From: a virus | DNA length: 64,000 bases | IMG/VR virus record: IMGVR_UViG_3300015360_000032 | Location: 1 to 64,000 of that record | Direction: 5' to 3' (one strand) | In this document: positions 1 to 42,067 of the stretch, in pieces | Layout of the letters: each line of letters opens with the position of its first letter | How positions within the stretch are numbered: position 1 is the stretch's first letter | Program-made: the position numbers and the translations under genes | The notes under the pieces: generated by a model | Seen by the model: the letters and a program-made list of their open reading frames with translations, nothing else | Told to the model about the DNA's origin: nothing | Databases searched by the model: none

Positions 1-1153
1 GAGCCAGTGCGTTGTGGGCTATGCCCAGAACGTCGCGCAGAGCATCGTACGGCTTCTTCATGAAGTCGTCTTTATACTCGATGGGTATCTCTTCTACCCA
101 CGAGCCTGCGGGCATCTCCTCGTTGTCGCTCAGCACGCGCGTATCGTGGTGAATGTCATTGCCGATCACGAGACGAAACTTGCGGCCAGAGAACCGCGAG
201 GCAGGAACAACATCGTACTGCCTGCGGTTGTAAATATACGTGCTCTTGATGCCTTGGGCTTCCACGAATCTCTTGTGCTTGTCGGTGAAGTCCCCGCGAT
301 ACTTGGTCGATGAAGATGCAAAGATGATCCCGAGCATAGGTCCTGGGCGGGTGAAACGGCCGCGCTTGCGTCGTGTCATGGTGCTGTGTACTTGCTGGGC
401 CTGATCGTAGAGGCCGGCTCTGCCGCTCGATAGCTCTGCTTTCTTCGAGCGCAACACAACGTTCATGAAATTAATTTCATCAATAATGCCGCCAATGATG
501 GCCTCACCGAGGATGGCATCCTCGTCTCCGCCAGACTGTGCCACACGAATGTTCTTTTCCTCGAAGTACATCTCGGATTCAATGAGCTTGGTCGGTAAGA
601 AATACTTCTGAAAATAAGGCATTGACTCCACAAACTTCCGCATCGGAACATAGATAACTTTGTTGATGACGCGCGGCTTTGCTCCCATGATGGCGAACAC
701 AATAGAGGTGGTGCTTGGCAGCCCGTAGATGGCCTGAGGGTTCTTCAGGCAGGACAACAAATAGAGATGGTACAGGGTGGTAATCATAGCGACGGACGTT
801 TTGCCCGTAGCCGTGGCCCCCATGAGAATCGCCTCGTTGTACGCACCGTATTCGGTACCTTTCCACCATTTGCAATTGATTTCAATAATTGCCTTGCGGA
901 CCTCGGGCCAAAGTTCAAGGTCCGTCGCGGCAAGAAATTCAGTGCTGTCGATGAACTCTTCAATGCTGACTGGCGTGCGCTCCAATTGCATCATGAAGCG
1001 GAACAGGGAATCATCTCCGTCTAAGTGTCGCTTCACCCCATCGCGGTACATCTCCGCGAACATGCGGTTCTTTACCGTACCTGCCATCGTCTCGACGGCA
1101 TTCAGGAATCGTTGTCTCTTCCGCGCGTTGGCGAACTGCTGTACCTGTGTCAC
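1..1153 (-). CDS. terL: Terminase large subunit, N-terminal ATPase part (runs off window)
   Basis: Not in the ORF track; translated by hand from GTG at 1153, which overlaps the upstream TGA. Open to base 1, with Walker A LMGATATGKTS and Walker B GGIIDEINF; follows a TerS-like gene. Confidence 0.85.
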   Translation of the reverse strand, partial: MTQVQQFANARKRQRFLNAVETMAGTVKNRMFAEMYRDGVKRHLDGDDSLFRFMMQLERTPVSIEEFIDSTEFLAATDLELWPEVRKAIIEINCKWWKGTEYGAYNEAILMGATATGKTSVAMITTLYHLYLLSCLKNPQAIYGLPSTTSIVFAIMGAKPRVINKVIYVPMRKFVESMPYFQKYFLPTKLIESEMYFEEKNIRVAQSGGDEDAILGEAIIGGIIDEINFMNVVLRSKKAELSSGRAGLYDQAQQVHSTMTRRKRGRFTRPGPMLGIIFASSSTKYRGDFTDKHKRFVEAQGIKSTYIYNRRQYDVVPASRFSGRKFRLVIGNDIHHDTRVLSDNEEMPAGSWVEEIPIEYKDDFMKKPYDALRDVLGIAHNALA

Positions 1154-1992
1154 AAACTCTCTACCTCGTTAGAGCTACTGGTAGCGTCAATGTCATCGAA
1201 GGTCATGGGGCCGAAGCCTCCCGCGCGGGGAGCAGCGTCAACCGTGTCATCGTCCTTCAGGCTGTTCATCAACTCTAGCGTTTGAAGCATCAGGTTCTGT
1301 ACGTCAGAGACGTTCGATCCATCATCCGCGCGGCGGAACCGAAGCACATCGAAGACGCCTGCGGTATTGAGAAAGCGCGTACGGTCAGCGTTTGCCGCAA
1401 GTGCAGTCCGCATAGCTGCCAGCTTCATGGGCGTGGGTACTGCCTGGATGGCATTGCCGTTCTCGTCCGTGCGGGCACCAGAGGATGCGATACGCATTGC
1501 CATGCCAGAGATTTCGTCATAGATGGCCTGCTGCCCGCCGATCATCTCTTCGATGTTCAACTGAGTCGCCGCCTCTCTCAAACGGCGCTTCAATTCAGCG
1601 CGATCTTTCTCAACGGTCGAGATGGATACCTGTAGCTGTCGAGCTATCTCGTCCAGGGGAATATTGCGCATTAAGAGTCGATTAAGCAGTGTCAATCGAA
1701 ACTCTTTGGCATACGCTGCGCTGCCTGCTGCCTGTACGGCATTCATGCGTGTGCGCGGGTTCTCTTTGTCCGCGAGTACAGGCGGGTGAAATTGCCCTGC
1801 ACGTATGCGGCGCGACATGGCTTCCGGATTAACCGCATCATCTACTTCATCAGGCTCTGAGTCATCAAGGTCTGATGCACGTAGAGACTCGGACTGGGTT
1901 GAGGTACTTGCACTGAACCCCCCGCCTCCTGCTGAACGGGCGCGGCGCAGGATGACACGTCTGCGCGCGGGCGGAGGGGCATCGTCACTCAT
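1150..1992 (-). CDS. Probable terminase small subunit (HTH)
   Basis: HTH-like IPLDEIARQLQVSISTVEKD plus helical region; translationally coupled to terL. Confidence 0.7.
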   Translation of the reverse strand: MSDDAPPPARRRVILRRARSAGGGGFSASTSTQSESLRASDLDDSEPDEVDDAVNPEAMSRRIRAGQFHPPVLADKENPRTRMNAVQAAGSAAYAKEFRLTLLNRLLMRNIPLDEIARQLQVSISTVEKDRAELKRRLREAATQLNIEEMIGGQQAIYDEISGMAMRIASSGARTDENGNAIQAVPTPMKLAAMRTALAANADRTRFLNTAGVFDVLRFRRADDGSNVSDVQNLMLQTLELMNSLKDDDTVDAAPRAGGFGPMTFDDIDATSSSNEVESL

Positions 1993-2735
1993 TACTTCAC
2001 CGCCAGAAAAGTGCTGAACATCATGAAGCGGAAGGTCTCTTGAATCTCTGTGAAGTGCAGAGAAAAAGTCCTCATTAGCTTGTCATGGCTCATGGGGAAC
2101 ATGGAATTCTTCAGGGCTTCCGTCTTGGCCTCAATCTCTGCAAGGGTGTAGCCATTGCCACGGCGAAACTTGATGTACTGATCGTGGGCCAGATCGCCAA
2201 GCTCTCCCGAGTGGCTTCCCTTGTGTCCGAAGATCAATAAGCCGCCCGGACGAACCAGCTTGAACATCTGAAGCAGGGTGATAATCTGGTGTTCCGGCTT
2301 CACGAATTGTAGTACGTAGTGGGCGCACACCACGTCGTATCGTTTGTCGCTAAGCTGGTCTAGATCACCCTTGGCGATGTCCATCTGGTACACCTTCGCC
2401 GCAGGGAAATCAGTGCGCAACAGGTCACACATTTGCGGGGAGTTATCCACCGCACTGTAGTGGAGGTTATCCAGTGCGCGAACATCCATGCCAGCAGCTT
2501 TGACGAGAGCGCTGTAGAAGGCCCCGCGCGATGCGCCGATGTCGAGGATGTCACACGGCCTTTCGAGACGGCCTAGAACCATCTCCGCGTGTGCTGTGTG
2601 GGTGGCGTGGAAGTTGGGAATCGAACGACTTGCCATGTCGTTAAAGATTCTTGCCACTTCGCCATCGAAGGCAAACTTGTTCGGGTTGGCAGGGAAATGC
2701 ACTGGATTCCCGCCTGCCGCGATTGCTAAACTCAT
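1992..2735 (-). CDS. cmoA: CmoA-like (carboxy-SAM synthase family) SAM-dependent protein
   Basis: FAFDGEVARIFNDMASRSIPNF, LDIGASRG, AVDNSPQM, YVLQF and NGYTLAEIEAK resemble E. coli CmoA motifs. The Arg199-equivalent appears to be Thr. Confidence 0.75.
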   Translation of the reverse strand: MSLAIAAGGNPVHFPANPNKFAFDGEVARIFNDMASRSIPNFHATHTAHAEMVLGRLERPCDILDIGASRGAFYSALVKAAGMDVRALDNLHYSAVDNSPQMCDLLRTDFPAAKVYQMDIAKGDLDQLSDKRYDVVCAHYVLQFVKPEHQIITLLQMFKLVRPGGLLIFGHKGSHSGELGDLAHDQYIKFRRGNGYTLAEIEAKTEALKNSMFPMSHDKLMRTFSLHFTEIQETFRFMMFSTFLAVK

Positions 2736-2771
2736 GCTCTACCCCCTATCGACGCACATCACGCCGACCGA

Positions 2772-2801
2772 AGGATAACAAAGTCTTCTAGTGCATGGCT
2801 A
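2772..2801 (-). promoter_or_regulatory. Putative promoter TAGCCA-N18-TATCCT (extended -10 TG) upstream of cmoA-like/terS/terL
   Basis: Read directly; the same TAGCCA -35 element recurs at two other putative promoters. Confidence 0.4.
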
Positions 2802-2952
2802 TAGCTATCGCGTTAGACACGACGATCATGAAGACAGTTACTCTAAATATCCCGTCTTCCCTCGTGTTCCCCTTAGCCCCTAGAGCCAGGAGAATAACCC
2901 AAACTAATATGTTCCCCCATAGAAAAACACTGACAAATGAAATCAATTTCAT
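2788..2952 (-). CDS. Small membrane protein (54 aa, MKLISFVSVFLWGNILVWVILLALG...)
   Basis: Hand-translated; ATGA overlap with the upstream stop; two hydrophobic segments. Confidence 0.55.
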   Translation of the reverse strand: MKLISFVSVFLWGNILVWVILLALGAKGNTREDGIFRVTVFMIVVSNAIAIAMH

Positions 2953-3164
2953 TTCTCCTTGAACGGCTGAAGAGGCCCCTGAATGTCGAACTCATGCTCT
3001 TCATTCCATCGCTCGCGGCTCAGCTTATCATCAAGCACCATGCTGAAGCAATCGCCTTTGGCATTAACAAAGACAGGTACTGCCTCTGTCGGGCGGGAGG
3101 GGGAAGTAACTAGATACAGCCCGGGTGTTGCCACCATCCTATCAATCTTCTCTTTGGTATTCAT
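2949..3164 (-). CDS. Hypothetical protein
   Basis: ORF coupled to neighbours. Confidence 0.6.
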   Translation of the reverse strand: MNTKEKIDRMVATPGLYLVTSPSRPTEAVPVFVNAKGDCFSMVLDDKLSRERWNEEHEFDIQGPLQPFKEK

Positions 3165-3529
3165 TACGCGCCCATGCCTAGTTGATAGTTGATGACGGAT
3201 TGAAGGAAGATAATTTGCGACTGCATCTCTGTGATGGTTCTTTGCAGGGCTGCACGCTCACCCGCGCTTAGATCAGTAGTTGCTTGTGTCGGTCGAATTC
3301 CTGCCTTCCATAGTTCGTCTAAGAGTGTGTCTGCCGCAGCGAAAGGCATCGACAGCAACGGCGTCTCGTCTATCGCCTTACCCTGCTCGGATTTGGTAAA
3401 AGACCGCTGCATAATAACGCTAGTAGGTACAGATACCCCACCGTTAAAGTGATGGACTGCAAGATATAGCTTTATCTCCCTAGCCCGGATGTCTTTCTGC
3501 ACTAAAAAATCATATAGGTCTGCGCTCAT
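3164..3529 (-). CDS. Hypothetical protein
   Basis: ORF coupled to neighbours. Confidence 0.6.
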   Translation of the reverse strand: MSADLYDFLVQKDIRAREIKLYLAVHHFNGGVSVPTSVIMQRSFTKSEQGKAIDETPLLSMPFAAADTLLDELWKAGIRPTQATTDLSAGERAALQRTITEMQSQIIFLQSVINYQLGMGA

Positions 3530-3960
3530 TTTTCAGGTACCCCTAAGCCGGCCAACTCGTCGGCTCTTTCGTTGCCAATGATCCCTGTGTGTCCCTTGAC
3601 CCATTGCCAAGCAACCTTTTTGTAATCGCAATCCAGATGCCCTAGGCGCTCCCATAGGTCTTTGTTTTTAATTTCTTGGTTTCCCGTACCCCGCCAACCC
3701 GAGCGAAGCCATGAGTCCATATGGTCGGTGATGCCAGCGACAACATAGATCGAGTCGCTGATGACCGTGAGGGTATCGGTGAAGGGCTTAGCACCCTCCA
3801 ACGCCTTGATCGCGGCCAATAGCTCCATGCGGTTGTTCGTTGTCTCGTGGTGTCCCCCGCAAGCGGTCTCTAGCTCCTGATCATTGAGGTACAGGACGTA
3901 GCCCCATCCCCCGCGACCGTCCTTGCGAGAAGCACCATCGGTGTAGGCGACGTAGTTCAC
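3526..3960 (-). CDS. rnhA: Ribonuclease HI
   Basis: YTDGAS, TTNNRMEL, SDSIYV, KNKDLW, WVKGH and NERADELA motifs. Confidence 0.95.
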   Translation of the reverse strand: MNYVAYTDGASRKDGRGGWGYVLYLNDQELETACGGHHETTNNRMELLAAIKALEGAKPFTDTLTVISDSIYVVAGITDHMDSWLRSGWRGTGNQEIKNKDLWERLGHLDCDYKKVAWQWVKGHTGIIGNERADELAGLGVPEK

Positions 3961-4292
3961 CCCCAGCCCTCGGGTAGGCGGCAGTTCTTTGTGGCCCCGA
4001 CAAAGAAGGGTTTGATATCAGTTTCAAAATAGCCCGCGAGGCCGCAGCCTATCTTGGTCACTTCAAATTCAAGCTCTGGGTTGTTGGCGGCGTATCTAAG
4101 AAACTCCGCGACGTACGCCTTGATATAGCCAAGTGGCAGCGGCCTTAGGTAAATGTCCTTCGTCGGGATGGCATAGCTATTGCCTGTCGGCCCGCGACCT
4201 ACCCCCTGCTTGGCTTGATAGTTCTCGCGGGCAAACAGAGCCGCACCCTTGCCGTGCCGGCCTGCAAGATTGCTGCCGAATACGAAGATCAT
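3957..4292 (-). CDS. Conserved phage protein of the IFVFGSN (A1S_2505-like, macro-related) family
   Basis: IFVFGSNLAGRHGKGAA, YAIPTKD and VTKIGCGLAG motifs. Confidence 0.75.
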   Translation of the reverse strand: MIFVFGSNLAGRHGKGAALFARENYQAKQGVGRGPTGNSYAIPTKDIYLRPLPLGYIKAYVAEFLRYAANNPELEFEVTKIGCGLAGYFETDIKPFFVGATKNCRLPEGWG

Positions 4293-4537
4293 TCTTCCCC
4301 CTCGAAGCTGTCAAGTTTGCGGTGCATTCGGCGGGCCAGAAGGGCAATTCCATGCTCCTTCGATACCTCCTCCATGTACCAATAAACGCCGGTCGGTGTC
4401 TTACCCGCCGGATCGCCACGGTTCCATATACGGCGCATTTTCTTTTCGTGCTTGGCCGTGGTGGGCGCGGGAGGTGCTGGCCGGCTTCGGGCCGTGTACG
4501 TCATTTGCGTTCCCCGCGTAATAGTGGAGTCGATCAA
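4289..4537 (-). CDS. Hypothetical protein (start may be 4504)
   Basis: ORF whose stop overlaps the next start. Confidence 0.45.
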   Translation of the reverse strand: MIDSTITRGTQMTYTARSRPAPPAPTTAKHEKKMRRIWNRGDPAGKTPTGVYWYMEEVSKEHGIALLARRMHRKLDSFEGEE

Positions 4538-4664
4538 AGTCGCAAAGCGCGCATTTGCAATCGTGCCCCTGAGAAATCATTCTACATCTTCCCTGTAGTC
4601 GGTCTGCGATCCACTCGCGTGGTCTGCCTGCTGCGGCTGGTATGTCATCGTCGATACCAATCAC
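4401..4664 (-). CDS. Hypothetical protein with CxCxxC
   Basis: GTGA coupling to the upstream gene, but overlaps the downstream ORF. Confidence 0.35.
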   Translation of the reverse strand: MIGIDDDIPAAAGRPREWIADRLQGRCRMISQGHDCKCALCDFDRLHYYAGNANDVHGPKPASTSRAHHGQARKENAPYMEPWRSGG

Positions 4665-4834
4665 TTGGCTTGTCCTTGTTCTTTGCTAGCCGCGCATCTT
4701 GGGCAGTCTGGCTTGCGGTTGCTACCCAAAACCACCCATCCACTTGGCTCATACCCGCACAGCGCGATATTGCTGCCGAGAGCCTTCAAGTGAATTTTTA
4801 TACCCCCGATCCCCCGCACGCGGAGCGGTCGCAT
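4661..4834 (-). CDS. Small Zn-finger-like hypothetical protein
   Basis: H...ALCG...CPRC; TAATG coupling. Confidence 0.5.
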   Translation of the reverse strand: MRPLRVRGIGGIKIHLKALGSNIALCGYEPSGWVVLGSNRKPDCPRCAASKEQGQAK

Positions 4835-4998
4835 TACTTCGCGCACACTAACTGATCGTTGCGATCCCACAAACGTACATGCACCCCTGCAATTTTGAAG
4901 GCGTCATAGATCGACTTCGCGGTGTCCAGATTGGGGTGAGCCACCGTAACAAGTTGCGGCCCTCCACAGAACATTTTGATGTAGGTGACACGGTACAT
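4834..4998 (-). CDS. Hypothetical protein (54 aa, MYRVTYIKMFCGG...)
   Basis: Hand-translated; AAGGAG RBS upstream. Confidence 0.5.
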   Translation of the reverse strand: MYRVTYIKMFCGGPQLVTVAHPNLDTAKSIYDAFKIAGVHVRLWDRNDQLVCAK

Positions 4999-5015
4999 GG
5001 CTCACTCCTTGTCGG

Positions 5016-5351
5016 TTACACTTCTTCTCTGCGCATATCAAGCCACCGATCAAGGCAAACGATAGCCTCTTGCACGTCCTTTTTGGTGTCTTTGCCCCCT
5101 CTGCCCCCCGCAACCAGCATTTTCTTGATTGCATGAGCAATGCAAGGGTCGGTGACGTTAAAAAGCTCAAGCACTCGGTAGACATCAATGTGAGTGTAGG
5201 GGCAGAGCTTGTAGTAGTGAGGGTACTTGTCCGCGAGCGTGGGCGCTTTAGGCTCGTTCGGGGTGGGCAGAACATTCGGTACATACCCCGGAAACGACGG
5301 TAAGGGAGAGGGGGGCATGGAGTCGATAATCTCCTGGAGTTTCTGGCTCAT
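5016..5351 (-). CDS. Conserved phage protein (DUF3310-like)
   Basis: YPHYYK...IDVYRVL...HAIKK...GGRGGKD...DVQEA pattern. Confidence 0.6.
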   Translation of the reverse strand: MSQKLQEIIDSMPPSPLPSFPGYVPNVLPTPNEPKAPTLADKYPHYYKLCPYTHIDVYRVLELFNVTDPCIAHAIKKMLVAGGRGGKDTKKDVQEAIVCLDRWLDMRREEV

Positions 5352-5995
5352 ACAAGCACCTCTGCGAGCGCGGGGAATTGCTCCAACACAATCGCCCGGA
5401 TAGCAATAGCAACCTCGCGGTGTTCCTTTTGAGTACCCGGATCACACCGCAACTGGCAGTAGTGAATGAAGCTGCGGATCGTTCCCGCCATGTAGATGGT
5501 GCTTTCAGTCATGCCCTCGGGCAGTACGTTACGTGCTACCTCTTTCGCAATGCCCTTGCTCAGCGCGGCCTGATAGATAGTGGCGGCTGTATCCGCGATG
5601 CTGTATTGCACCATTCCCCACCAAGCCCGCAACTCGGCGTCCTCAGTCTCGTGGCTGGCCTGTCGGTTCGTTGCGTCCTGCATCCGGGCTTCGCTGATGA
5701 CAGGATCGGACAGGACTGCCGCGTATCGCTGGCTGAATTCCTGAAACGAAAACGAACGGTGACGCAGAATCTGGTGAGCAATGGCGCGCGTAGTGACAAT
5801 CTCCACGGTCATGCTCGCCATCTCAAAAGGAGACCAGTGAGATTTCCTGACGAGGTAGGCCAATAGGCGCGGGGCGGTCTCCGCGTTTGCTTGGTTAGCA
5901 GGGTTGCTAACGCGGGCGCAGTATGCCAGCAAGTCACCTGACTCCTGGCACTCGGGGATCGCCGGCTTGGTGATTGCGATCAATCGAACTTGCAT
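5348..5995 (-). CDS. thyX: FAD-dependent thymidylate synthase
   Basis: HWSPFE, QILRHRSFSFQEFSQRY, KEVARNVLP and TQKEHR motifs. Confidence 0.97.
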   Translation of the reverse strand: MQVRLIAITKPAIPECQESGDLLAYCARVSNPANQANAETAPRLLAYLVRKSHWSPFEMASMTVEIVTTRAIAHQILRHRSFSFQEFSQRYAAVLSDPVISEARMQDATNRQASHETEDAELRAWWGMVQYSIADTAATIYQAALSKGIAKEVARNVLPEGMTESTIYMAGTIRSFIHYCQLRCDPGTQKEHREVAIAIRAIVLEQFPALAEVLV

Positions 5996-6062
5996 ACATT
6001 TTCCCTTTTCAGTTAAGTCTCGGCGGCATCCCGCGCTGCGGCGGCTAGCCGTTCAGTGATGC

Positions 6063-6260
6063 TCATATCAGTCCTTTGTCGAGGGCGATCCATTCAGGTA
6101 CGAAGACGCTGGTGATCCCGTAGCCCTCTCCCGTCTGGTCTGTGATCTGTGACAAAGGAATCCACGCGGGCATCTTTGCTTCAGTCTCAATCAACAGTGC
6201 TTTGTCCGTGACCATCTTGACTTTGCAATTGATTTCAATCGTACCGTCTTTCTTGCTCAT
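6063..6260 (-). CDS. Small conserved phage hypothetical protein
   Basis: TDKALL...WIPLSQI...PEWIA pattern. Confidence 0.65.
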   Translation of the reverse strand: MSKKDGTIEINCKVKMVTDKALLIETEAKMPAWIPLSQITDQTGEGYGITSVFVPEWIALDKGLI

Positions 6261-6430
6261 GGAAGATTACTCCAGCCCCACACAATAAATGAAGTAGTTA
6301 TCAACATTGCCCCGAGCCCTCCTAGGCCAAAACACAAGGAAGGAAATACCCTCTCTATGCTCGTCGGGGGATTAACGAAAATAAAAAGAATCCACCCAAT
6401 TATCCAGAGAGAGATGCCTGTTGCGAACAT
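6257..6430 (-). CDS. Small membrane protein (57 aa, MFATGISLWIIGWILFIF...)
   Basis: Hand-translated; fills the gap exactly, ATGA coupling, two hydrophobic helices. Confidence 0.55.
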   Translation of the reverse strand: MFATGISLWIIGWILFIFVNPPTSIERVFPSLCFGLGGLGAMLITTSFIVWGWSNLP

Positions 6431-6432
6431 GA

Positions 6433-7956
6433 TTAAACCTTTGTCATGAGTCGTTTGCTGAAAGCTGCTCTTGCCTCTTTGGCAAGCCCCATTGTACTCC
6501 CGTCTCTGAAGGGCAGGCTACCGAACTCGAAGTCCAATGCCTCCCCGAGCGCCTTCACATTGATGCCCTTCGCAGCGGTGAGGCGGAAGTAGAAGACATT
6601 GCCACCCGGCCAAAAGTCACTGCTCTTCCAGAAGGTTTCGAACATGGCAGATGCCTCATTCGTGGTGTGAAACTTCTGCACCTTGGGGTTGTTCATGAAG
6701 TCGCCAAGCCGTACCCCGGGCTCGCTGTCAAACGTGAAGTAGTTGGCATTGCGGATGCCACCATACTCGTAGTTGTAATCAGAGATGTCTCGGCACGTAC
6801 CGTAGATCACAGTGGTGCGGGTGCATAGCGCGTGGACTATGGCGAGTACACACATGCGGTCCCGTAGGAATGGAATTGAATTCAGTACTGAGCAAAGGAA
6901 GATGCTGTTGAACTTCAGCTTAGGGTCTTCGATTGCCCGCAAAAATGCTTTGACTTGCTGGCGGGAATACGATGGGCTCGGGAAGCCCGCATCACCTTCG
7001 GGGTCGATCCTGTACGGCTCGAAATCATATGCATCAATGCCCTTTGTTCTGAGATATGGCGCAGCTTTGCCGAGCCCCGCGCCAAAGTCCAGCAAGGCAG
7101 GGCCGTGCATGTCGCGGAACTTGCGCCAGTAATCCACGGAGTACGAATCCTTATCAGGAAGCGTACGTTCACCGTTAGCCCAAAACCGCATTGCTTTGGG
7201 AACCGCACCACGATTGTTCTGAGGGCGGCGGTAGGCGGAAGCACGAAGTAGTTTTTCGAAATCACCATCGACTGCAAAGTCCATCGAAAGATAGTTTAGA
7301 AAATTGAGCGCCACTTCTGCATGAGCATCTGGTATGCGGATGACAGGCCAATCTGTCTCCCCGGCTTCAAGGGCCGCGAACGCGCGGTGTACCCCGTTAA
7401 CGATCTTGCCAGAGATAGACGCAACGACAGGAATCTTGATGCCCATCCTAAACGGCACAAGGGCCATGTTAGCAGCCTTCTTGTCGTAGCGTTCCGCCTG
7501 CCCCTGAGTAAGCGGGGCAAGCTTCTCCGTACGGCAGTTGAGCGCGAACCAATTTTCCCCCTCGAAGTCGGGCAAAGATTCGGCAGCCTTGACCACCTCC
7601 GCAAGATCAAGTTTGCCCGCCGCCTTGCTGCCAGTGTCGAACGCAGTAAAGTCGTTCGTAGCGCGATTGAAAACAAGGTTAATGCCACGTCTCTGATCCT
7701 CCGTCAGTTCAACGACAACGATGGGTACGTTTTTGAAATCAATTTCATTGGCAACCCGTGTACGCTGGTGCCCTGACAAAAGCATGCCCCCTGCCGTGAT
7801 GAAAAGGGGCTGAATGAACCCTAGCTTTTTGAGGGAAAGCTTGAGGAGTCCTAGGCGCGCGGCATCCGCCTTGCGTGGGTTCTCTTTGTCGGGAAATACC
7901 TGCGAAATGGCTAGGTTTCTAACGAGAGATGGGCGGGCCGTACGCTTGATGACCAT
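6433..7956 (-). CDS. Tandem ParB/Srx-fold domains fused to a C-terminal SAM-dependent methyltransferase
   Basis: ENPR...LLSGHQR and KIVNGVHR (ParB GxxR boxes); LLDFGAGLG (motif I) and IFLCSVLNSIP (motif IV-like). Confidence 0.8.
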   Translation of the reverse strand: MVIKRTARPSLVRNLAISQVFPDKENPRKADAARLGLLKLSLKKLGFIQPLFITAGGMLLSGHQRTRVANEIDFKNVPIVVVELTEDQRRGINLVFNRATNDFTAFDTGSKAAGKLDLAEVVKAAESLPDFEGENWFALNCRTEKLAPLTQGQAERYDKKAANMALVPFRMGIKIPVVASISGKIVNGVHRAFAALEAGETDWPVIRIPDAHAEVALNFLNYLSMDFAVDGDFEKLLRASAYRRPQNNRGAVPKAMRFWANGERTLPDKDSYSVDYWRKFRDMHGPALLDFGAGLGKAAPYLRTKGIDAYDFEPYRIDPEGDAGFPSPSYSRQQVKAFLRAIEDPKLKFNSIFLCSVLNSIPFLRDRMCVLAIVHALCTRTTVIYGTCRDISDYNYEYGGIRNANYFTFDSEPGVRLGDFMNNPKVQKFHTTNEASAMFETFWKSSDFWPGGNVFYFRLTAAKGINVKALGEALDFEFGSLPFRDGSTMGLAKEARAAFSKRLMTKV

Positions 7957-7961
7957 GGCGT

Positions 7962-8657
7962 TTACTCCGTGATCCCAAGCCTGCGCTTGATTTCATTCGT
8001 GATCGCAACCTCAGAGAAATTATGCAGTTGTCGAATACCATCCGCCCATACCCTGTACTGCTGAACGGGTAGGAAGAATACTATCTCCCCTAGCACAAAT
8101 CTAGCGGTCTGAGGGGAGCGCCGATTCTGTGAGCCGGCTGCATCTGCGGTAGCCTGCTGCGCGCTGGCTGCGGCGTCTAGACAATCGGCTCCCACGACTT
8201 CATTCAAGCAATCAATCTCTTCCTGGTTCCAGCCGAATTGAGTCCAGTCGATACCGGCATCGCCCAGCTTGGAGATTTCCCCCGCGAGTAGATCGAAGTC
8301 CCAGGTAGCGGACTCGGATACCTTGTTGTCTACAAGGCGGAACGTATTGATTTGCTCCTGCGTCAGGTTCTCCGCGCGGATGCAAGGCACCTCGGTCATG
8401 CCCAGTAACTTAGCGGCTTCAGTTCTCGTGTGCCCTGCGACAAGGATATTGTTCTCGTCAATGACACACGGGACAAGGAAGCCGAAGTTACGAATGGACT
8501 CCGCGACTGCCGGAATGGCTTTCTCATTGTCTCGTGGGTTGAAAGGATACGGGGTGATGTCCGTCAAGTCCACGTATTCAAACTTGACTCTGCGGTGTAT
8601 GTTGACTGGCGCAACCTCGGGCCGGCGCGTTCGTCTTTGAATGTTGGCAGTTGCCAT
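7962..8657 (-). CDS. ParB N-terminal (ParB/Srx) domain protein
   Basis: PYPFNPRDN, SIRNFGFLVP, ILVAGHTR, FRLVDNK. Start moved to ATG 8657 because the longer ORF crosses a terminator and the upstream gene. Confidence 0.85.
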   Translation of the reverse strand: MATANIQRRTRRPEVAPVNIHRRVKFEYVDLTDITPYPFNPRDNEKAIPAVAESIRNFGFLVPCVIDENNILVAGHTRTEAAKLLGMTEVPCIRAENLTQEQINTFRLVDNKVSESATWDFDLLAGEISKLGDAGIDWTQFGWNQEEIDCLNEVVGADCLDAAASAQQATADAAGSQNRRSPQTARFVLGEIVFFLPVQQYRVWADGIRQLHNFSEVAITNEIKRRLGITE

Positions 8658-8685
8658 AGATACCTCGACACAAATTTCAAGAGAT

Positions 8686-8716
8686 AAAAAAAGGGGAGCG
8701 CCGTGAGACGCCCCCC
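8686..8716 (-). terminator. Rho-independent terminator after the 441-aa gene
   Basis: GGGGGGCGTC-TCAC-GGCGCTCCCC followed by T7 on the minus strand. Confidence 0.75.
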
Positions 8717-8748
8717 TGTGCATGCCTTGCGGCAGATGCTTAGACGGC

Positions 8749-10074
8749 TTAAGCCGTCGCGGCTGCGACCCGGCGAGGGGCTGCGGGTGCAACTTTCTTG
8801 CCTGAGACAACCTTGGTTGCGCCAGCCTTCTGCATGGGTGCAGATGCCTTGGTCGCCGGCTTGCCTGCATTGGCGCTTGCCCATTCGTTGATAATCTGCG
8901 CTGCCGCCTGATCGATCGTCTTGAGGCCCAGTTGCTCCCTCGCCGTCTCCAGAATCGCATTGATCGAGTTGCCTTCCTCTTCGAGGAACCGCAGCTTGAT
9001 CGTGCGCTTGACGACAGGCGTGCCCTTGGTGCCGCCGACATACGACATTTCCTTGATGGTCTCGGACAGGTCGGAAACCGTGTTGTTGTTCGCAAGCTCG
9101 ATCAGTTCATCGGGCTTCGAATCATCCTCCAACATCAGCGGCGCAATCGTCTTGGCCTTCGTCCAGCCCATCTTGGCAACAGCTTCTGCCGCGTTGGTGA
9201 TGCCGGCCTTCGTGAACGAGACGTAAATCTTGATCAGGTACATCGCCTTGCGATACTCGATCTGGAAGTAGTCATTCAAGAATGCTTCGAAGCCAGGGAC
9301 CATCCGCCCGTCAACCTTGGTCGGCTCCTTGTACTTTGCGCCATCATCCAAATCGAGGTAGGGCTTTTCCTTGCGGACGTGGTAAAGGATGCCGCCGAGT
9401 TGCCAGTCGGTCGTGACCGATTGCGCTTCCAGTTGTTGGGCAACGCTGATAAGGTCGTCGGTGTCCTTGATAAGGGCCAGGACTTCTTCGTCTTCGTTCT
9501 CCAATTCCATGTCGAGCGGATCAGGCGCAACGTCCTTCGGCGGCTTGACCGCTTTCGGGGGCTTGACCTTCGGGGTCTTCGCCGCAGCCTTGGCCTTGGC
9601 CGGTGCTGCCTTGGCGGGAGCAGCCTTGGCGGGAGCAGCCTTGGCCTTGGCCGGTGCTGCCTTGCCCTTGGCCTTGACGGGTTCCGGTGCAGCCTCCTCT
9701 TCCTCTTCCGCGTCGGCGTCTTCAGCGTCCTGGTCTTCGTCGCCCTCTTCAACGGCTTCGATTTCCGTGTCGAACACTTGAACTTCCAGAGTCTTCGGAT
9801 TGGTTTCCGGATTCTCCTTCTTCTTCGCGTTGAATTCCGGGTTCGGGTACGACAGGATCGGGTCGCCACCGGCGCTATCGCCCTCGGCTTCCGTGAACCC
9901 AACAATTTCGTACGACTCGCCGGCCGTCAGGACCTGCTCATCATCCGGGGTATCGGGAGCGTACCCGAGAAATGCGACCGTCTGGCCGACTTCGAACTCT
10001 GCTGCTACCGCTTCCACGGTGGCGGTAGCTTGTTTCGCTGCGGGCTTTGCCGCTGCCTTTGACTTGGTAACCAT
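8749..10074 (-). CDS. Putative DNA-binding protein: acidic N-domain, histone-H1-like AKAAP linker, DUF3102/ParB-type helical HTH region, RHH-like C-end
   Basis: WQLGGILYHVR...FEAFLNDYFQIEYRKAMYLIKIY...MGWTKAK pattern; PAKAA repeats at about 9586-9677. Confidence 0.6.
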   Translation of the reverse strand: MVTKSKAAAKPAAKQATATVEAVAAEFEVGQTVAFLGYAPDTPDDEQVLTAGESYEIVGFTEAEGDSAGGDPILSYPNPEFNAKKKENPETNPKTLEVQVFDTEIEAVEEGDEDQDAEDADAEEEEEAAPEPVKAKGKAAPAKAKAAPAKAAPAKAAPAKAKAAAKTPKVKPPKAVKPPKDVAPDPLDMELENEDEEVLALIKDTDDLISVAQQLEAQSVTTDWQLGGILYHVRKEKPYLDLDDGAKYKEPTKVDGRMVPGFEAFLNDYFQIEYRKAMYLIKIYVSFTKAGITNAAEAVAKMGWTKAKTIAPLMLEDDSKPDELIELANNNTVSDLSETIKEMSYVGGTKGTPVVKRTIKLRFLEEEGNSINAILETAREQLGLKTIDQAAAQIINEWASANAGKPATKASAPMQKAGATKVVSGKKVAPAAPRRVAAATA

Positions 10075-10159: not shown

Positions 10160-10765
10160 CTATCTGGGATTTGAAATCAATTGCAACTTGCCTTTGGTAA
10201 TCGGGGTCTGTCGAAGTGCCTCCAACCGATCCGATTTTCCTGCCTTTTCCGTGGGATTTCTAGCGCCACATTTCATTTCCCCTAGCAACATTAAACCAAT
10301 AGCATCTGCTTCGTCATGTTGATTTACGGTGATGCCGAATCGTACTTGCAGGGCTGTAGCAATTCCACGCTTTTCTGCCCGGCCATTGAGTGCGATAACC
10401 GACTTCATCATGGTAGGTGCTATTTCAATATAGTCAATACCCTGCTCCCATAACATCGTTTTCAGGACGCCTCCAAGCTCGCCTAGATGGAAGACATTGT
10501 TGTTCATCTTCCCCCCTGCCCCCATAGCATAGTCCTCATACACAACGAGGGTCGGCTTGGCTGCTTCGATAACCTTAGAAAGCATAAGCCTAATGTAGTA
10601 GAGCCGGTGCGGCCCCCTAAGAGGAGATGTCGTGATCGTGCCAGAGACTACCCTGTCTCCGTGTAGGTAAGCATAACCTGTGCTGCTAAGCGACGGGTCG
10701 ATGCCCAGTATTCTAGGGCGCGCGACGGAGGGCAGAGGAGATGCTGATCTTCTTAGGAGCTTCAT
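10160..10765 (-). CDS. ruvC: RuvC-like Holliday junction resolvase
   Basis: ILGIDPSLSSTG, VVYEDY, ELGGV and DEADAIGL motifs. Confidence 0.85.
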   Translation of the reverse strand: MKLLRRSASPLPSVARPRILGIDPSLSSTGYAYLHGDRVVSGTITTSPLRGPHRLYYIRLMLSKVIEAAKPTLVVYEDYAMGAGGKMNNNVFHLGELGGVLKTMLWEQGIDYIEIAPTMMKSVIALNGRAEKRGIATALQVRFGITVNQHDEADAIGLMLLGEMKCGARNPTEKAGKSDRLEALRQTPITKGKLQLISNPR

Positions 10766-12287: not shown

Positions 12288-12309
12288 GTCCCGCCCCTTG
12301 AAATCAATT

Positions 12310-13437
12310 TCAATTGCCCAGGAGGTACTGAATGAACTCCTCTGGCATCTTCTGCTGCAAGGCGTTCTGCACTATGAGTTGGATGCGAAGGCTCTCGTAG
12401 ACTTCCTTGTTCTCGTAGAGAAACCTAGCAGCGTGCGCGGCGGAATCAAACCTCTGCTCAAAGTCAGGGAAGGCCAACGATATCCCGCGACGGGCATCCC
12501 CCTCGTACCATCCATACTTGGCAGCAAAGGCCAGCATCGTGGGCGCGTCATCGACGTTGCCCTCTTGCAGTCCGATAGATGGGTCATCACGACGGACAAG
12601 GCGGAATTCACCCGAGCGCATGCCAGCGTTCATCTTGTTCTTCTCGATGGTGAACGCATGCTCATTGAAGGACAGCGTTTCAATACCGTACTCGTCAGCC
12701 TTGATCGTCTCTTTGTTCTTGATGCGTGCCTCTAGCGAGGTGAAGAACCCAAGTGCCTTGCCCCCGGGCAGACTAAGTGGCTCTCCACTAGGGCTCCATC
12801 CACCGATCTTGGATCGTTGCTGGTTGGAAAAGATGATCGAGACAAAGTGATCGCGCTTGCGTTCAGTGATCAGGGCCGCGCTCATCTTGCGCAACATGCT
12901 GGTGATCAGGCGGGATTGTTGTCCCACTAGACTGTCTTCGGCAGACGCTTCCTCCTCCTTCATGGGCAGCAAGGCAGCGAGGGAGTCGATAGCCAGTAGG
13001 GATGTCTCTTTGGCGTGGATCAGGGCAACGGCAATGTCTACGGCCTGTTCGCCTGTGTCCGGGTGAATCAACACCAAGTCATCGTTGTTGACATCCTGCT
13101 TCGCACTCCACGTTTTGTCGTAGGTTCCTTCAACGTCAATGAGTGCCGCCTTTTGTCCCGGCATGGTCATCTGTGCCCCTGCAATGGCCCGGAGCATCAT
13201 AGTCGTCTTGCCGCTGTGCTTGGGGCCGTGAACCATCGTCATCCGGTTGTGGGGTATCCCACCAAGGGTTGCGTAGTCGAATGTGAAAACTCCCGTGCGT
13301 ATCCGAAAGGGCTGGTGAACGTCAGTACCGTTGACTGCGGTACGGTTGCCATAGTTCTTTCTGATAGCGGCGAGGGTCTTCACTAGCTCGTCAGTGAGGA
13401 CAACTTCCTTGGCTTTAGTGCGGCGAATAGCGACCAT
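12310..13437 (-). CDS. recA: RecA-family recombinase
   Basis: GGIP, GPKHSGKTT, IDVEG, AIDSLAAL, NQQRSKIG and PGGKALGF motifs. Confidence 0.93.
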   Translation of the reverse strand: MVAIRRTKAKEVVLTDELVKTLAAIRKNYGNRTAVNGTDVHQPFRIRTGVFTFDYATLGGIPHNRMTMVHGPKHSGKTTMMLRAIAGAQMTMPGQKAALIDVEGTYDKTWSAKQDVNNDDLVLIHPDTGEQAVDIAVALIHAKETSLLAIDSLAALLPMKEEEASAEDSLVGQQSRLITSMLRKMSAALITERKRDHFVSIIFSNQQRSKIGGWSPSGEPLSLPGGKALGFFTSLEARIKNKETIKADEYGIETLSFNEHAFTIEKNKMNAGMRSGEFRLVRRDDPSIGLQEGNVDDAPTMLAFAAKYGWYEGDARRGISLAFPDFEQRFDSAAHAARFLYENKEVYESLRIQLIVQNALQQKMPEEFIQYLLGN

Positions 13438-19575: not shown

Positions 19576-22506
19576 TCAAACGGGGGGTCTAGCCCTACGC
19601 ATTATATGCGCGGAACGGGCTCTCTTTTCCTCCGCCACCTTAACTATTTTATTGCGGCGATTGATAACCATTTGCTTCAGGCTACGCTCTATCCGCTTTT
19701 CTACTTGACGGTTCGTGCCCGCGCGCATCAGGCGATAACGGCGCACAGCGACATGGACGCTTTCATCCTCCGTGTCCTCAGGGGTGGTGTATGCGGAGCG
19801 TTGCAAACGGCCATTGTTTGGGGGGGTTTTCTGTCGGGGTACCTGGATCAAGGGGTTGCCGTCCTTGTCCGTCAAACCGGCGAAATTGAAAGGTTTGTCG
19901 AGGGTGAATCCATCGCATTCGTGGACCGCCCCTAGATTCTCTCCGAACCCAACGTCCGCGACAATGGGCACCTTGAGAGTGAGACCAAAGCGCTCGTGCA
20001 GGGGATTGGTTTCCATGTATCGCTTCAGAGTCTTCATGCCCCAGTCAACGTATTCCTTCTTGACGTAGGCAATGATGGAGTCGTGGACGAAGCCAACAAT
20101 TTGCATAGCTTCGGGGTCTAGCTCCTCATTCATTCTGCCCTGCGCCATCACGCCTAGGCTTGACCCGAACTCCTGCACCGGGGCATTGATCGATTGACGG
20201 CCCGCCTCCTGCTGAATGAATTCCTCGGGTGAGTCGATCATCGGGAGGTGACGGATGCGGCCAGAGAAGGAGCGCACGAACTTGTTCTTCTGTGCGAAGC
20301 CGCGCATGGCCTTGTGCCACGGCTCCAATGAACGGTACTTGGTAAAGAAGTTACTCCGGATGCGCTGCGCGTCCTTCTCGGTAAAGGTGACACCGTAGTC
20401 AGTCTTTGCGTAGCCAATGAACTTGCGCCAGCCCATTCCGTAGATGAATCCGAAATTCACGGCCTTAGCTTTTTGACGGTACTCCTTTTGTTTGTCCTTG
20501 GGCAGTAGGTTGAACTGCTCGACCGTGAGGCCGGCGACGATAGCCGCAGTTGCGCGGTGGATGTCCCCGCCGATGCGATAGATTTCAATCATCGCCTTGT
20601 CACCCGACATGCACGCTGCAATGCGTAGCTCTGCCTGAGACAAGTCAACTTCAATGGCATAGTAGCCGGGAGGGGCCACGAACATCTCGCGGTATGCCTT
20701 GGCTTTCTTTCCGCGCTTGGGGAAATTCTGGCCGTTCGGGTCGTCGGAGCTTGAGCGCCCGGTGACGGCCTTGTGGAGGTGATAGTTAGGACGGACCTTA
20801 CCGCCACGGATGTACTTCTTTTCGAAGCTAATCACGCTCTTGGTCAGCAACGATTCGTCTTGAACGTACTGTGCAAGCTGAACAGTGAACGGCTCGTGGT
20901 CAAAGAAGTACGGGAGGTGATCCTTGGAGGAGACAGAGGGTTCCCGCAACGTCTCGTCATGCAGGTTCTTCGTGCTGTCTGTGAACACCTTCGGCTTGAG
21001 GCGAAACCCACGAGGGTGGGTGAACAGGACTTGCTTTGTAAACTCGGTTCGCGTGAAGCTCAGTGCGTCCTCTGGTGTTTTTTTCTTGTTCGCCGGCTTG
21101 TTCAGAAAGTCAACGACGATGGCTTGCTTCAGGTCGCGCGGTATCTGCCGCAGCAGATCGGACTTTTGTTGCGCGACTTCCTCGATCATGGTCTGCTTGA
21201 AGTTGGCGAGTGCAGTCCCTTCATCGATATACATGCCCCGCGTTTCTAGCGCAGCGAAAGCGTTCAAGCCAGGAATCGTGATGTTGCAGTAGTGAGCCCA
21301 AAGGTAGTCATCGGCCATGATGTCGGACTCTAGCCGCGAGTAGAGACGGAACGCAGCATCGGTATCCCCGCAACCGTAGCCGCACATCTCTGCAATGGGT
21401 ACCTCCCACATGCGGGACTTGTCGTACGTGGCATTGAACACGTCGGCGTATCCGCCCATCTCGGGTACGTAGATTTTCGTCAGTACGTCGAGGTTTTTTT
21501 CTGGCAGGTTCTCGTCAAGGAGTGCAGCCATCATCAGCGTGTCGCCGCCGATACGGAAACGAATGCCCTCTGCCATCCAAAGCCCAACGTTATCAAACTT
21601 GGGATTTTGCCCAACCACTACCCGATCCGGCTTGCAGAGTAGCCGACGCAGTTGGTTGCGCAGCTTGGGTTTCTTGCCCTCGGGTATGGGGTTCTCCGGG
21701 TGATCCCAGACCAGCATGTATCCCTTGCCCGCCGCCGTGGTGAACTGCATCGTCAGAATTTGAAACTTGGGCTTGAATGTAGACTTGCCCTTGTGAAGCG
21801 CCGGCCGGTAGCTGCGGACATCGGCTCCCTCTTGGTACCAGCGAAGGCCCGTCGTCTCCGTGTCGAACGACAGTAGCTCCGCATCCTCTTCGATAAGGAA
21901 TTCCAGATCATCGATAAGCTCGTACTCGCCTTTCTGCTGGCTCGCGGCGGCAGCGACATCGTACTCAGCATCGACTGACCGAGAGAACGATTGGACATCC
22001 GCATCGAACACGGGAGCGTTCTGCGGGTACATGACGACGACGCCAGGAGACATCATCGGGAACACCGCGCAACCAAGCTCTTCAGACTGGCTTACAAACC
22101 CCCGGACCTTGGTAATCTTCGTGGCCTTGCCGAACACCTGAGACGCGGCGGCAGCACCTAGCGGGATAATTGCCTCGTAGTCGTGAGACTCGACTTCCGC
22201 CTGAAAGTGCTGGCGACAGTGCTTCATAGCCGCAGTCTTTATCTTCTGGACATGGGCATTGGGGTCGTACGCGCAATGACAGGTCGGGGTGAACCTGAAG
22301 TCCCCCTTGCCGAATCCAATGTCAATGAGTTTGCCGCTCAGCATCTTCGACTGATGGTTCGTCATCAATCGATCTTCTTCCGCCGACTTCATGGACGGGA
22401 CATCGGTGACGATCAGGAAGCGAGCATCCTCGGGGCCGCGCGCCCCCAGAGGAAGGTAGACGCCCTGGATTGGGCAGCCTTCACATAGGTCGGGGTTAAA
22501 GCTCAC
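19576..22506 (-). CDS. polA: Family A DNA polymerase with N-terminal uracil-DNA-glycosylase-like domain and 3'-5' exonuclease
   Basis: FDTETTG (exo I), DLSQAELR (A), RQKAKAVNFGFIYG (B), VHDS (C); N-terminal CEGC...C...C with a UDG family 4-like layout. Confidence 0.93.
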   Translation of the reverse strand: MSFNPDLCEGCPIQGVYLPLGARGPEDARFLIVTDVPSMKSAEEDRLMTNHQSKMLSGKLIDIGFGKGDFRFTPTCHCAYDPNAHVQKIKTAAMKHCRQHFQAEVESHDYEAIIPLGAAAASQVFGKATKITKVRGFVSQSEELGCAVFPMMSPGVVVMYPQNAPVFDADVQSFSRSVDAEYDVAAAASQQKGEYELIDDLEFLIEEDAELLSFDTETTGLRWYQEGADVRSYRPALHKGKSTFKPKFQILTMQFTTAAGKGYMLVWDHPENPIPEGKKPKLRNQLRRLLCKPDRVVVGQNPKFDNVGLWMAEGIRFRIGGDTLMMAALLDENLPEKNLDVLTKIYVPEMGGYADVFNATYDKSRMWEVPIAEMCGYGCGDTDAAFRLYSRLESDIMADDYLWAHYCNITIPGLNAFAALETRGMYIDEGTALANFKQTMIEEVAQQKSDLLRQIPRDLKQAIVVDFLNKPANKKKTPEDALSFTRTEFTKQVLFTHPRGFRLKPKVFTDSTKNLHDETLREPSVSSKDHLPYFFDHEPFTVQLAQYVQDESLLTKSVISFEKKYIRGGKVRPNYHLHKAVTGRSSSDDPNGQNFPKRGKKAKAYREMFVAPPGYYAIEVDLSQAELRIAACMSGDKAMIEIYRIGGDIHRATAAIVAGLTVEQFNLLPKDKQKEYRQKAKAVNFGFIYGMGWRKFIGYAKTDYGVTFTEKDAQRIRSNFFTKYRSLEPWHKAMRGFAQKNKFVRSFSGRIRHLPMIDSPEEFIQQEAGRQSINAPVQEFGSSLGVMAQGRMNEELDPEAMQIVGFVHDSIIAYVKKEYVDWGMKTLKRYMETNPLHERFGLTLKVPIVADVGFGENLGAVHECDGFTLDKPFNFAGLTDKDGNPLIQVPRQKTPPNNGRLQRSAYTTPEDTEDESVHVAVRRYRLMRAGTNRQVEKRIERSLKQMVINRRNKIVKVAEEKRARSAHIMRRARPPV

Positions 22507-38021: not shown

Positions 38022-38048
38022 ATCAGTTTCCTTAGATTGAAATCAATT

Positions 38049-38765: not shown

Positions 38766-38816
38766 ATCAATTCACCTTTTCTGAAATCAATTTCAATTTA
38801 GTAGATTGTAGGACAG

Positions 38817-42046: not shown

Positions 42047-42067
42047 CGTTATTCCTTGAAATCAATT

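Follow-up and report, generated by a model that had tools for sequence, protein, structure and literature searches.

A ParB-fold protein, a tandem-ParB methyltransferase fusion and a CmoA-family enzyme form a conserved phage gene module beside the terminase genes

What do ParB-fold proteins do in a phage genome where no ParA is found, and on what does a transferase fused to two such folds act? Chromosomal and plasmid ParB and Noc are CTP-gated clamps loaded at parS or NBS sites. The window analysed here (64,000 nucleotides, positions 1 to 64,000 of an 80.9-kb phage contig that is 85% complete) encodes, side by side on the minus strand, proteins of 441 (8749–10074), 231 (7962–8657) and 507 (6433–7956) amino acids. 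A sequence-only reading had correctly placed these three genes together, and had proposed that the first protein reads a dispersed 16-bp palindrome and loads ParB clamps that carry the transferase along the DNA. It had also noted the absence of ParA and integrase, which holds for the whole contig: family profile searches for the ParA ATPase (PF13614) and tyrosine integrase (PF00589) return no match on its 80.9 kb. A plasmid-like partition system of a phage-plasmid would account for the ParB-fold proteins, but is scarcely credible here: no ParA, integrase or HTH domain was found, the relatives are lytic siphoviruses, and the canonical partition ParB model TIGR00180 covers only the N-domain of the 231-aa and 507-aa proteins (scores of 27.4 and 33.6 bits against a cut-off of 58.45).

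The 231-aa protein does carry the ParB N-domain, with AGHTR, that had been assigned to it (PF02195 ParB_N, 27.9 bits, cut-off 26.3; phrog_620, E = 7e-50). A family alignment resolves this N-domain (NPR, AGHTR and DNK boxes), a helical linker and a C-terminal domain of ~45 aa; an HTH was searched for in the protein and none was detected. Its profile matches Noc/ParB in the PDB (E = 4e-13), aligning GHTR with the GERR of Noc, and the Box II (P-motif) arginine of this motif, R78, is invariant in the family. Noc and ParB give the best sequence and structure matches to the phage proteins and have the N-terminal fold and Box II arginine in common with them. The phage proteins differ in having GHxR for GERR and FN or DN for EN in Box III, in falling below the TIGR00180 cut-off, and in lacking an HTH DNA-binding domain, ParA and a ParA-binding context.

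Phage ParBs without a DNA-binding domain activate T-dioxygenases on double-stranded DNA, as in the ParB-dependent 5mYOX (PMC13229309). Like ParB176 of the 5mYOX176/ParB176 pair, the 231-aa protein is a phage ParB that stands alone and combines a nucleotide-binding with a C-terminal domain but has no obvious DNA-binding domain, and its gene adjoins that of a partner enzyme, there a post-replicative DNA modifier and here a putative DNA-acting transferase (PMC13229309). The partner here is a SAM transferase with two ParB folds of its own, not an Fe/2OG dioxygenase. The architecture expected of such an activator (ParB_N, linker, small C-terminal domain, no HTH match) is what we find, and the ParB gene lies directly upstream of the ParB–methyltransferase gene in 69/69 loci, with a median gap of −7 nt.

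In the 507-aa protein, a full-length member of phrog_5475 (E = 4e-126), PF02195, hhalign and an AF2 model (pLDDT 93.4, pTM 0.91) bear out the two ParB boxes (SGHQR and NGVHR) and SAM transferase (DFGAG) first noticed from the sequence alone. Domain 1 (aa ~10–100; 7657–7929, minus strand), with NPR, SGHQR and FNRATND motifs, matches PF02195 over aa 12–95 (31.3 bits, cut-off 26.3) and, in Foldseek, the CTP-γ-S-bound ParB of M. xanthus (PDB code 7bnr, E = 8.9e-6); N26, P27, R28, S61, G62 and R65 are invariant among 90 relatives. Domain 2 (aa ~135–228; 7273–7554, minus strand) has no Pfam match. Profile–profile comparison pairs it with domain 1 (hhalign, 98.1%, E = 9.6e-14) and with the stand-alone ParB family (98.2%), and neither G188 nor R191 varies in the family alignment; by these profiles it is a cryptic, diverged duplicate of the ParB fold. 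Both Box II arginines of the fusion, R65 (GHQR) and the equally invariant R191 (GVHR), align with the GERR of Noc. Relatives of the fusion number 161 cluster representatives at E ≤ 1e-30, and the best 150 of these are mostly ~500 aa long and matched over nearly their full length. One natural fusion (P0199, 706 aa) joins the two proteins, residues 1–187 matching the stand-alone ParB family (99.7%, E = 5.8e-27) ahead of a full (ParB)2–methyltransferase.

The C-terminal part (aa ~229–465; 6562–7272, minus strand; LDFGAG, FEP and VLNSIPF..DR) is a class I SAM-dependent methyltransferase fold in which motif I and the acidic residue after β2 are present; among the 90 relatives G292 and G294 of motif I are invariant, and D290 and E313 are at least 90% conserved. 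Methyltransf_23 (PF13489) matches at E = 4.5e-6 and 26.9 bits, just below its cut-off of 27, and is matched by 49 of the 90 relatives; nine match TIGR04096, a dnd-associated putative methyltransferase (best E = 5.5e-5). SVLNS does stand in place of DPPY/NPPY, as had been pointed out, and a PC catalytic motif is likewise absent, motif IV being a generic VLNSIPF; the ‘NSxPF’ corresponds to the generic Methyltransf_23 motif ‘vlehvpd’. The nearest PDB structures (Z 11–13) are small-molecule or tRNA methyltransferases. Family HMMs for C5 (PF00145), N6/N4 (PF01555) and D12 (PF02086) DNA methyltransferases find no match on the whole contig, so the fusion and a CmoA-like protein are the only SAM enzymes found there.

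This CmoA-family enzyme (247 aa; 1992–2735, minus strand) is the third member of the module and was missing from the gene set first named. In 57/57 loci with at least 2.5 kb of sequence, its gene follows the ParB–methyltransferase gene downstream on that strand, mostly within 0–900 bp. The conserved unit is ParB, (ParB)2–methyltransferase and CmoA-family enzyme, placed before terS and terL. Its order is identical in the cultured phages Pseudomonas SM1, Aeromonas HJ05 and Gordonia Evaa, and it recurs at 421 IMG/VR loci, in hundreds of uncultured phages; the module is widespread and uncharacterised. Linkage persists across clades that are 33–37% identical and have differing terminases (terL is GpA-type in L062), and the 57/57 association of both enzymes across such distant phages argues for one pathway. 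In the window, the CmoA-like stop overlaps the start of a small terminase candidate (280 aa; 1150–1992, minus strand), assigned by position; it is 50% identical to SM1 gp054, which itself lies between a CmoA-like gene and terL. The large terminase (2–1153, minus strand), truncated at the contig end, is 55% identical to SM1 gp055 and 37% to HJ05 gene 5. An insertion of ~3.7 kb has displaced the CmoA-like gene here, parting it and the terminase from the ParB pair with no module gene lost.

We think it probable, though by no means assured, that the module marks phage DNA late, after replication and before packaging, with ParB as clamp or activator. The class I domain would transfer an alkyl group to DNA, the donor being SAM itself or a derivative of it that the CmoA-like enzyme supplies; the two ParB folds of the fusion and the separate HTH-less ParB may, dependent on NTP, keep the enzyme on duplex DNA or switch it on there, by analogy with the ParB activators of phage T-dioxygenases. 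The sequences show the domain architecture, the conserved SAM- and NTP-motif residues, the strict linkage of the genes and their place beside terS/terL; a DNA substrate, the part played by ParB and the kind of group transferred are inferred. In favour count the linkage across distant clades, the P0199 fusion, the lack of any match to a known DNA methyltransferase family on the contig, the Box II arginine in all three ParB-fold domains (R78, R65 and R191) and SAM motif I with E313. Against it, the closest likenesses of the transferase domain are to enzymes that methylate small molecules or tRNA and not to known DNA methyltransferases, our literature search found no report of DNA modification for any relative, and a position beside the terminase would also fit a role in packaging. 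In such a role the ParB folds would aid the terminase in pac recognition, nicking or condensation while both methyltransferases modify a protein or small molecule; the module does immediately precede terS/terL regardless of the type of terminase, its last stop runs into terS, and small-molecule enzymes come closest in fold to its transferase. We nevertheless judge a packaging accessory improbable, as the insertion separates the ParB pair from the terminase at no cost in genes, a separate TerS candidate is present, and known phage ParB–enzyme pairings act on DNA bases.

For DNA marking there are published precedents (PMC13229309, PMC12783734), among them the phage-enriched fusions of a ParB-CTPase to Methyltransf_23 (bioRxiv 10.1101/2025.10.10.680097). 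The outline of the earlier proposal, a ParB and a ParB-fused transferase acting on phage DNA, is plausible; its 441-aa loader and 16-mer site, discussed below, are not supported. ParBc proteins accompany CmoA/CmoX systems, in which CmoA and a DNA carboxymethyltransferase have ParBc neighbours (PMC12783734). The CmoA–CmoX(–CmoY) 5-carboxymethylcytosine system of Synechococcus phage S-B43 likewise links a phage CmoA-family enzyme to a DNA-directed SAM-type transferase, with ParBc (PF02195) proteins frequently encoded nearby, as here (PMC12783734). In contrast to that system, two ParB folds are here joined to a transferase that belongs to class I and is of Methyltransf_23 type, Arg199 is absent from the CmoA-like protein, and the contig yields no match to a CmoX-type C5-methyltransferase homologue (PF00145, SPPC, R350) or to the AMP-forming ligase CmoY (PF00501).

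The CmoA-like enzyme matches TIGR00740 over model positions 13–239 of 239 (E = 3.8e-29) and E. coli CmoA over the full length (PDB code 4gek, E = 2.8e-21), and the family retains CmoA-specific N-terminal and DNSPxM/LQF motifs. Its 102 bits lie below the equivalog cut-off of 193.3, as do the scores of all its relatives (51–121 bits). Arg199 is the sole contact of CmoA to the carboxy-SAM carboxylate (PMC4482062); Thr205 occupies this column here. All members of the near clade have Thr or Ser, other clades have Glu, Asn or Ala, and Arg is confined to the L079/L080/L084/L090 clade. Because Arg199 is replaced and every CmoA-like protein scores below the cut-off, synthesis of carboxy-SAM, and with it its use, looks uncertain and indeed doubtful from these sequences.

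The unconserved Arg199 and the low scores would also suit a fusion that works as a plain SAM-dependent methyltransferase of DNA (or RNA), with its ParB domains as tether; the CmoA-like protein would then be another methyltransferase acting independently, or an anti-defence enzyme that consumes SAM, and no special cofactor would be involved. The SAM-pocket motifs of the fusion are generic, and ParB–methyltransferase fusions are common in phages: the available part of the Le laboratory survey of ParB-CTPases describes the same ParB-CTPase–Methyltransf_23 (PF13489) fusion as a phage-enriched architecture and, in that part, gives it no tandem ParB, obligatory ParB or CmoA-like neighbours, terminase linkage or function (bioRxiv 10.1101/2025.10.10.680097). 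Set against the 57/57 linkage of both enzymes in very distant phages and the retained CmoA-specific motifs, we regard this arrangement as unlikely. Within the DNA-marking reading, we tentatively raise the possibility that the 507-aa protein is the founding member of a new class of DNA alkyltransferases: of Methyltransf_23 type and unrelated to the C5-methyltransferase-derived CmoX, supplied with a SAM derivative by a divergent, Arg199-less CmoA-family enzyme, driven along phage DNA or activated on it shortly before packaging by three NTP-gated ParB folds, and yielding an undescribed modification.

By modifying their DNA, phages overcome restriction and CRISPR defences, and the modifications are also a source of tools for epigenetic chemistry. 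DNA carboxymethylation has a single natural route known to us, which depends on a C5-methyltransferase homologue; the transferase that partners the CmoA-family enzyme in this module is of an entirely different kind. If DNA marking is correct, the newly recognized partnership of ParB folds with DNA-modifying enzymes would gain a second enzyme class. Since cultured Pseudomonas, Aeromonas and Gordonia phages carry the module, it is directly testable, and Samunavirus phages are in therapeutic use, which gives knowledge of their DNA chemistry practical value.

The 441-aa gene (phrog_17202, E = 1e-29) adjoins the module, and that is as far as its supposed membership of a single cassette goes. An AF2 model predicts an SH3/KOW-like barrel (aa 30–107), a disordered acidic and AKP-rich histone-H1-like stretch (111–190) and a helical domain (196–402). 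In structure, the helical domain bears a weak likeness to ParB DNA-binding domains (Z 6.1 and 5.4), and Foldseek, Pfam and PDB profile searches with the protein return nothing, which leaves the proposed HTH-like region unestablished; the supposed RHH-like region is a pattern picked out by eye and is likewise not established. Between this gene and the ParB gene lies a strong intrinsic terminator (8692–8717, minus strand; an 11-bp stem with 8 G–C pairs, then TTTTTTT). The gene always follows a RecA–resolvase–exonuclease–RuvC block, including in phages SIO-2 and L338C, which lack the ParB–methyltransferase, and is absent at 11 of 12 distant loci with the ParB pair. Jointly with DNA marking by the module, and with the same restrained confidence, we read it as the last gene of the recombination block, a transcription unit of its own that is unrelated to the ParB pair.

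The dispersed 16-mer itself is real, with 32 copies at ≤1 mismatch where 0.01 are expected. One copy, TTGAAATCAATTTCAT (7733–7748), falls within the ANEIDFKN codons of ParB domain 1, and another (10171–10186) lies at the ruvC 3′ end, 97 nt upstream of the 441-aa start. The density of this motif (about one per 1.8 kb), the Z 6.1 resemblance and the occurrence of the 441-aa and motif families on the same phage backbone all suit a 441-aa HTH protein that loads ParB clamps at the palindromes and so carries the transferase over the ~2 kb between sites. We hold that model to be very improbable: to the terminator and the distribution of the 441-aa gene is added a failure of cassette and palindrome to co-occur, no repeated palindrome being found in 13 distant cassette-bearing loci examined and the motif family being absent from 24, an outcome that the sequence-only reading had itself named as refuting its proposal. 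The motif family instead tracks the SM1-like phage backbone, including L338C, where it and the 441-aa gene are present without the ParB–methyltransferase. The 16-mer usually abuts ribosome-binding sites, its intergenic copies lying directly 5′ of Shine–Dalgarno sequences. Although they differ from it in sequence, the Cluster K start-associated sequences and Cluster O 17-bp dyad repeats of mycobacteriophages are likewise short, conserved repeats with dyad symmetry, scattered through lytic phage genomes and in many cases placed just upstream of genes (PMC4351075).

The 507-aa protein (6433–7956, minus strand) is modular, formed by two ParB segments and a carboxy-terminal methyltransferase, and belongs along its whole length to phrog_5475, a family without functional annotation (E = 4e-126). 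Pfam recognizes ParB_N at aa 12–95 and Methyltransf_23 at aa 286–364. A library of 1.8 billion representatives gave 161 matches at E ≤ 1e-30, the best 150 of which are mostly ~500 aa and near-full-length; aligning 89 diverse relatives yielded an AlphaFold2 model with a pLDDT of 93.4 and a pTM of 0.91. Residues 140–225 repeat the secondary-structure pattern of residues 10–100, and profile–profile comparison of the two ParB segments (98.1% probability, E = 9.6e-14) places SGHQR over NGVHR. Because both segments align with each other and also with the stand-alone ParB family (99.7% and 98.2%), the tandem ParB arrangement suggested by the sequence-only reading is correct. The C-terminal half is likewise a class I SAM transferase, as that reading had it, with G292 and G294 invariant among the aligned relatives, D290 at least 90% conserved and E313 almost unchanged. 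Among solved structures, this half comes closest to methyltransferases of small molecules and tRNA (Z 11–13), not to those acting on DNA. We considered N359-S-x-P-F as an NPPY-like amino-methyltransferase motif and rejected it because the segment corresponds to the generic Methyltransf_23 'vlehvpd' stretch. PADLOC returned only generic similarity to a ParB-fused methyltransferase and to the mad2 methyltransferase domain, and a protein atlas only generic Methyltransf_23 clusters. Nine of 90 relatives of the fusion match the putative dnd-associated methyltransferase family TIGR04096 (best E = 5.5e-5), which may offer a further, weak lead. One relative of the 507-aa protein, P0248 (891 aa), carries a LAGLIDADG (intein-like) insertion between its ParB and transferase parts.

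The fusion belongs to a conserved unit of three genes: a stand-alone ParB, the fusion itself and a CmoA-like methyltransferase. A locus search of viral contigs with the single protein as query found nothing; the family alignment found 421 relatives in IMG/VR, from which 80 loci were fetched. In 69/69 loci, the gene immediately upstream of the fusion is the stand-alone ParB (median gap −7 nt), and HMM searches place a methyltransferase downstream on the same strand in all 57 loci with at least 2.5 kb of downstream sequence, mostly 0–900 bp away. The best NCBIfam match of this methyltransferase is CmoA (TIGR00740), both for the window's copy and for each of the five copies scanned from relatives (E = 3.8e-29 here; 1e-13 to 7e-35 in phages SM1, HJ05 and Evaa and loci L062 and L083), with all scores below the family cut-off; the CmoA-like protein aligns with E. 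coli CmoA (4gek) from end to end. In the loci inspected, terL comes after the trio, including L062 with its lambda GpA-type terminase. Here, an insertion of ~3.7 kb (2736–6432) separates the fusion from the CmoA-like gene (1992–2735, minus strand) and encodes ThyX (5348–5995) and RNase H (3526–3960); it also holds several small ORFs, one of which (57 aa) appears hydrophobic by eye. The stand-alone ParB (7962–8657, minus strand; 231 aa) bears the ParB N-domain assigned to it from sequence alone (ParB_N, 27.9 bits against a cut-off of 26.3) and matches phrog_620; its family profile pairs AGHTR with the GERR motif found in Noc and ParB, and DNK with EN of Box III. One cluster representative, P0199 (706 aa), is a natural fusion that joins the stand-alone ParB to the (ParB)2-methyltransferase, which supports joint action of the two.

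All three ORFs of the originally proposed cassette (441, 231 and 507 aa) are present as described, and their C-terminal pieces have no mutual relation (hhalign <6%). Their grouping as a single unit fails, since a strong intrinsic terminator (8717–8692, minus strand; 11-bp stem with 8 G-C pairs, T7 run) sits between the stop of the 441-aa gene (8749–10074, minus strand) and the ParB start, and since that gene, found in 35/35 near-clade loci, occurs in only 1 of the 12 distant loci with enough upstream sequence among the 80 fetched. Homologues of its C-domain occur in 50 phage records, including the Vibrio phage SIO-2 group and Rhizobium phage L338C; the ParB-methyltransferase is found in only 16, with 0 from Vibrio or Rhizobium phages. 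In SM1, HJ05, SIO-2 and L338C, the 441-aa homologue is always preceded by RecA, a resolvase, a Cas4-like exonuclease and RuvC. The AlphaFold2 model of the 441-aa protein has three parts: an SH3/KOW-like barrel (aa 30–107), a stretch rich in acidic residues and AKP that is disordered, and a helical domain (aa 196–402). Foldseek, PDB profile searches and Pfam made no assignment for the family, and the sole HTH hint is similarity to ParB DNA-binding domains at Z 6.1 and 5.4, below the tool's trusted level for helical domains. A role for this protein as HTH reader and ParB loader is not supported.

The dispersed palindrome that was to serve as loading site, TGAAATYRATTTCA, is present in 32 copies in the window at up to 1 mismatch (0.01 expected; for example, 12298–12313, 38037–38052, 38781–38796 and 42056–42071) and in 44 copies in the whole contig at up to 2 mismatches. 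For 15 of these 44, a gene start follows within 60 nt downstream, and many run straight into a Shine–Dalgarno sequence and ATG. One dyad family, TGMAA-N4-TTKCA, occurs on all SM1-like backbones, each lineage having its own version with particular half-sites and centres: TGCAAGCGTTTGCA in SM1, TGCAACCCGTTGCA in locus L066 and TGCAACTTGTTGCA in Rhizobium phage L338C, with further members in L040, L045 and L009. Intergenic copies of this family are found immediately 5' of the Shine–Dalgarno sequence. L338C has its version of the motif yet lacks the ParB-methyltransferase. Twenty-four distant loci that carry the trio and span at least 8 kb lack the motif family (0–1 copies), and a direct search in 13 of these found no repeated palindrome (maximum 1–2 copies, against 1–3 in shuffled controls). 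The cassette thus occurs without a repeated palindrome and the motif without the fusion, which tells against a ParB loading site. Together, the distribution across the SM1-like backbone, the absence from distant trio loci and the positions at gene starts show the 16-mer to be an element of the backbone as a whole, linked to gene starts, and not a dedicated loading site of the ParB cassette. The motif family co-distributes with the gene for the 441-aa AKP-rich protein, as do many backbone genes. The 16-mer recalls start-associated sequences and the 17-bp dyad repeats of Cluster O (PMC4351075), and TGMAA-N4-TTKCA is a candidate start-associated, operator or nucleoid-organising site; the motif in a nick-motif paper (PMC11780129) proved unrelated. 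In L338C (L091; record positions 66658–69782), four annotated ParB-like ORFs flank a PAPS-reductase-like gene; gp086 and gp087 look like one split gene, and the others are gp088 and gp090. This is a putative further pairing of ParB with a DNA-modification enzyme, in a phage without the ParB-methyltransferase.

The domain anatomy read from sequence is therefore confirmed, and the 441-aa loader and 16-mer loading site are not supported. ParB-assisted DNA modification is the best-fitting reading of the trio, which would be a variant of known ParB-associated phage DNA-modification systems. T-dioxygenases are activated, specifically on dsDNA, by phage ParBs that combine nucleotide-binding and C-terminal domains but lack one for DNA binding (PMC13229309), and phage CmoA provides carboxy-SAM for the DNA C5-carboxymethyltransferase CmoX, with frequent ParBc neighbours of unknown role (PMC12783734). 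ParB-CTPase/Methyltransf_23 fusions appear in a preprint's listing as phage-enriched, with no function assigned in that listing (bioRxiv 10.1101/2025.10.10.680097). Building on these recent papers, and on the observed linkage and architecture, we propose that the trio is a DNA-alkylation module working late, before packaging; DNA as the substrate and an alkyl moiety as the transferred group are what we infer. In CmoA, Arg199 is the sole residue touching the Cx-SAM carboxylate (PMC4482062; numbering checked via Phe133). It aligns with Thr205 of the CmoA-like protein here, and its column holds T/S throughout the near clade and, outside that clade, E, N or A, with Arg in one sub-clade only (L079, L080, L084 and L090); other CmoA signature motifs are retained. 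This replacement makes carboxy-SAM a doubtful cofactor for the module, and the retention of Arg in a single sub-clade suggests that cofactor chemistry may differ among sub-clades.

The trio is uncharacterised, widespread and testable in cultured phages. The nearest cultured relatives are Samunavirus (Pseudomonas siphoviruses SM1 and PaMx31; ~58% amino acid identity for the 507-aa protein), for which we found no literature on DNA modification, with Aeromonas phage HJ05 (36%) and Gordonia phage Evaa (31%) farther away. The 80,923-bp IMG/VR virus contig (estimated completeness 85%), of which the window covers bases 1–64000, comes from a microbial-mat metagenome, the sole sequencing run holding the stretch and probably its source sample; a search of sequencing runs listed no RNA dataset containing it. 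Nearly all genes lie on the minus strand. The reported lack of ParA and integrase extends to the whole contig, where neither ParA nor a tyrosine integrase was found, nor were C5, N6/N4 or D12 DNA methyltransferases or an AMP-binding ligase. A family A DNA polymerase (19576–22506; 976 aa) bears an N-terminal uracil-DNA-glycosylase-superfamily domain (PF03167, aa 24–162). Ten tandem 72-nt (24-aa) repeats (61164–62111) lie within a 765-aa ORF that probably encodes a structural protein with repeat domains, and a GGCGGA-type repeat of 12-nt period (43673–43774) lies within a 1287-aa ORF on the minus strand.
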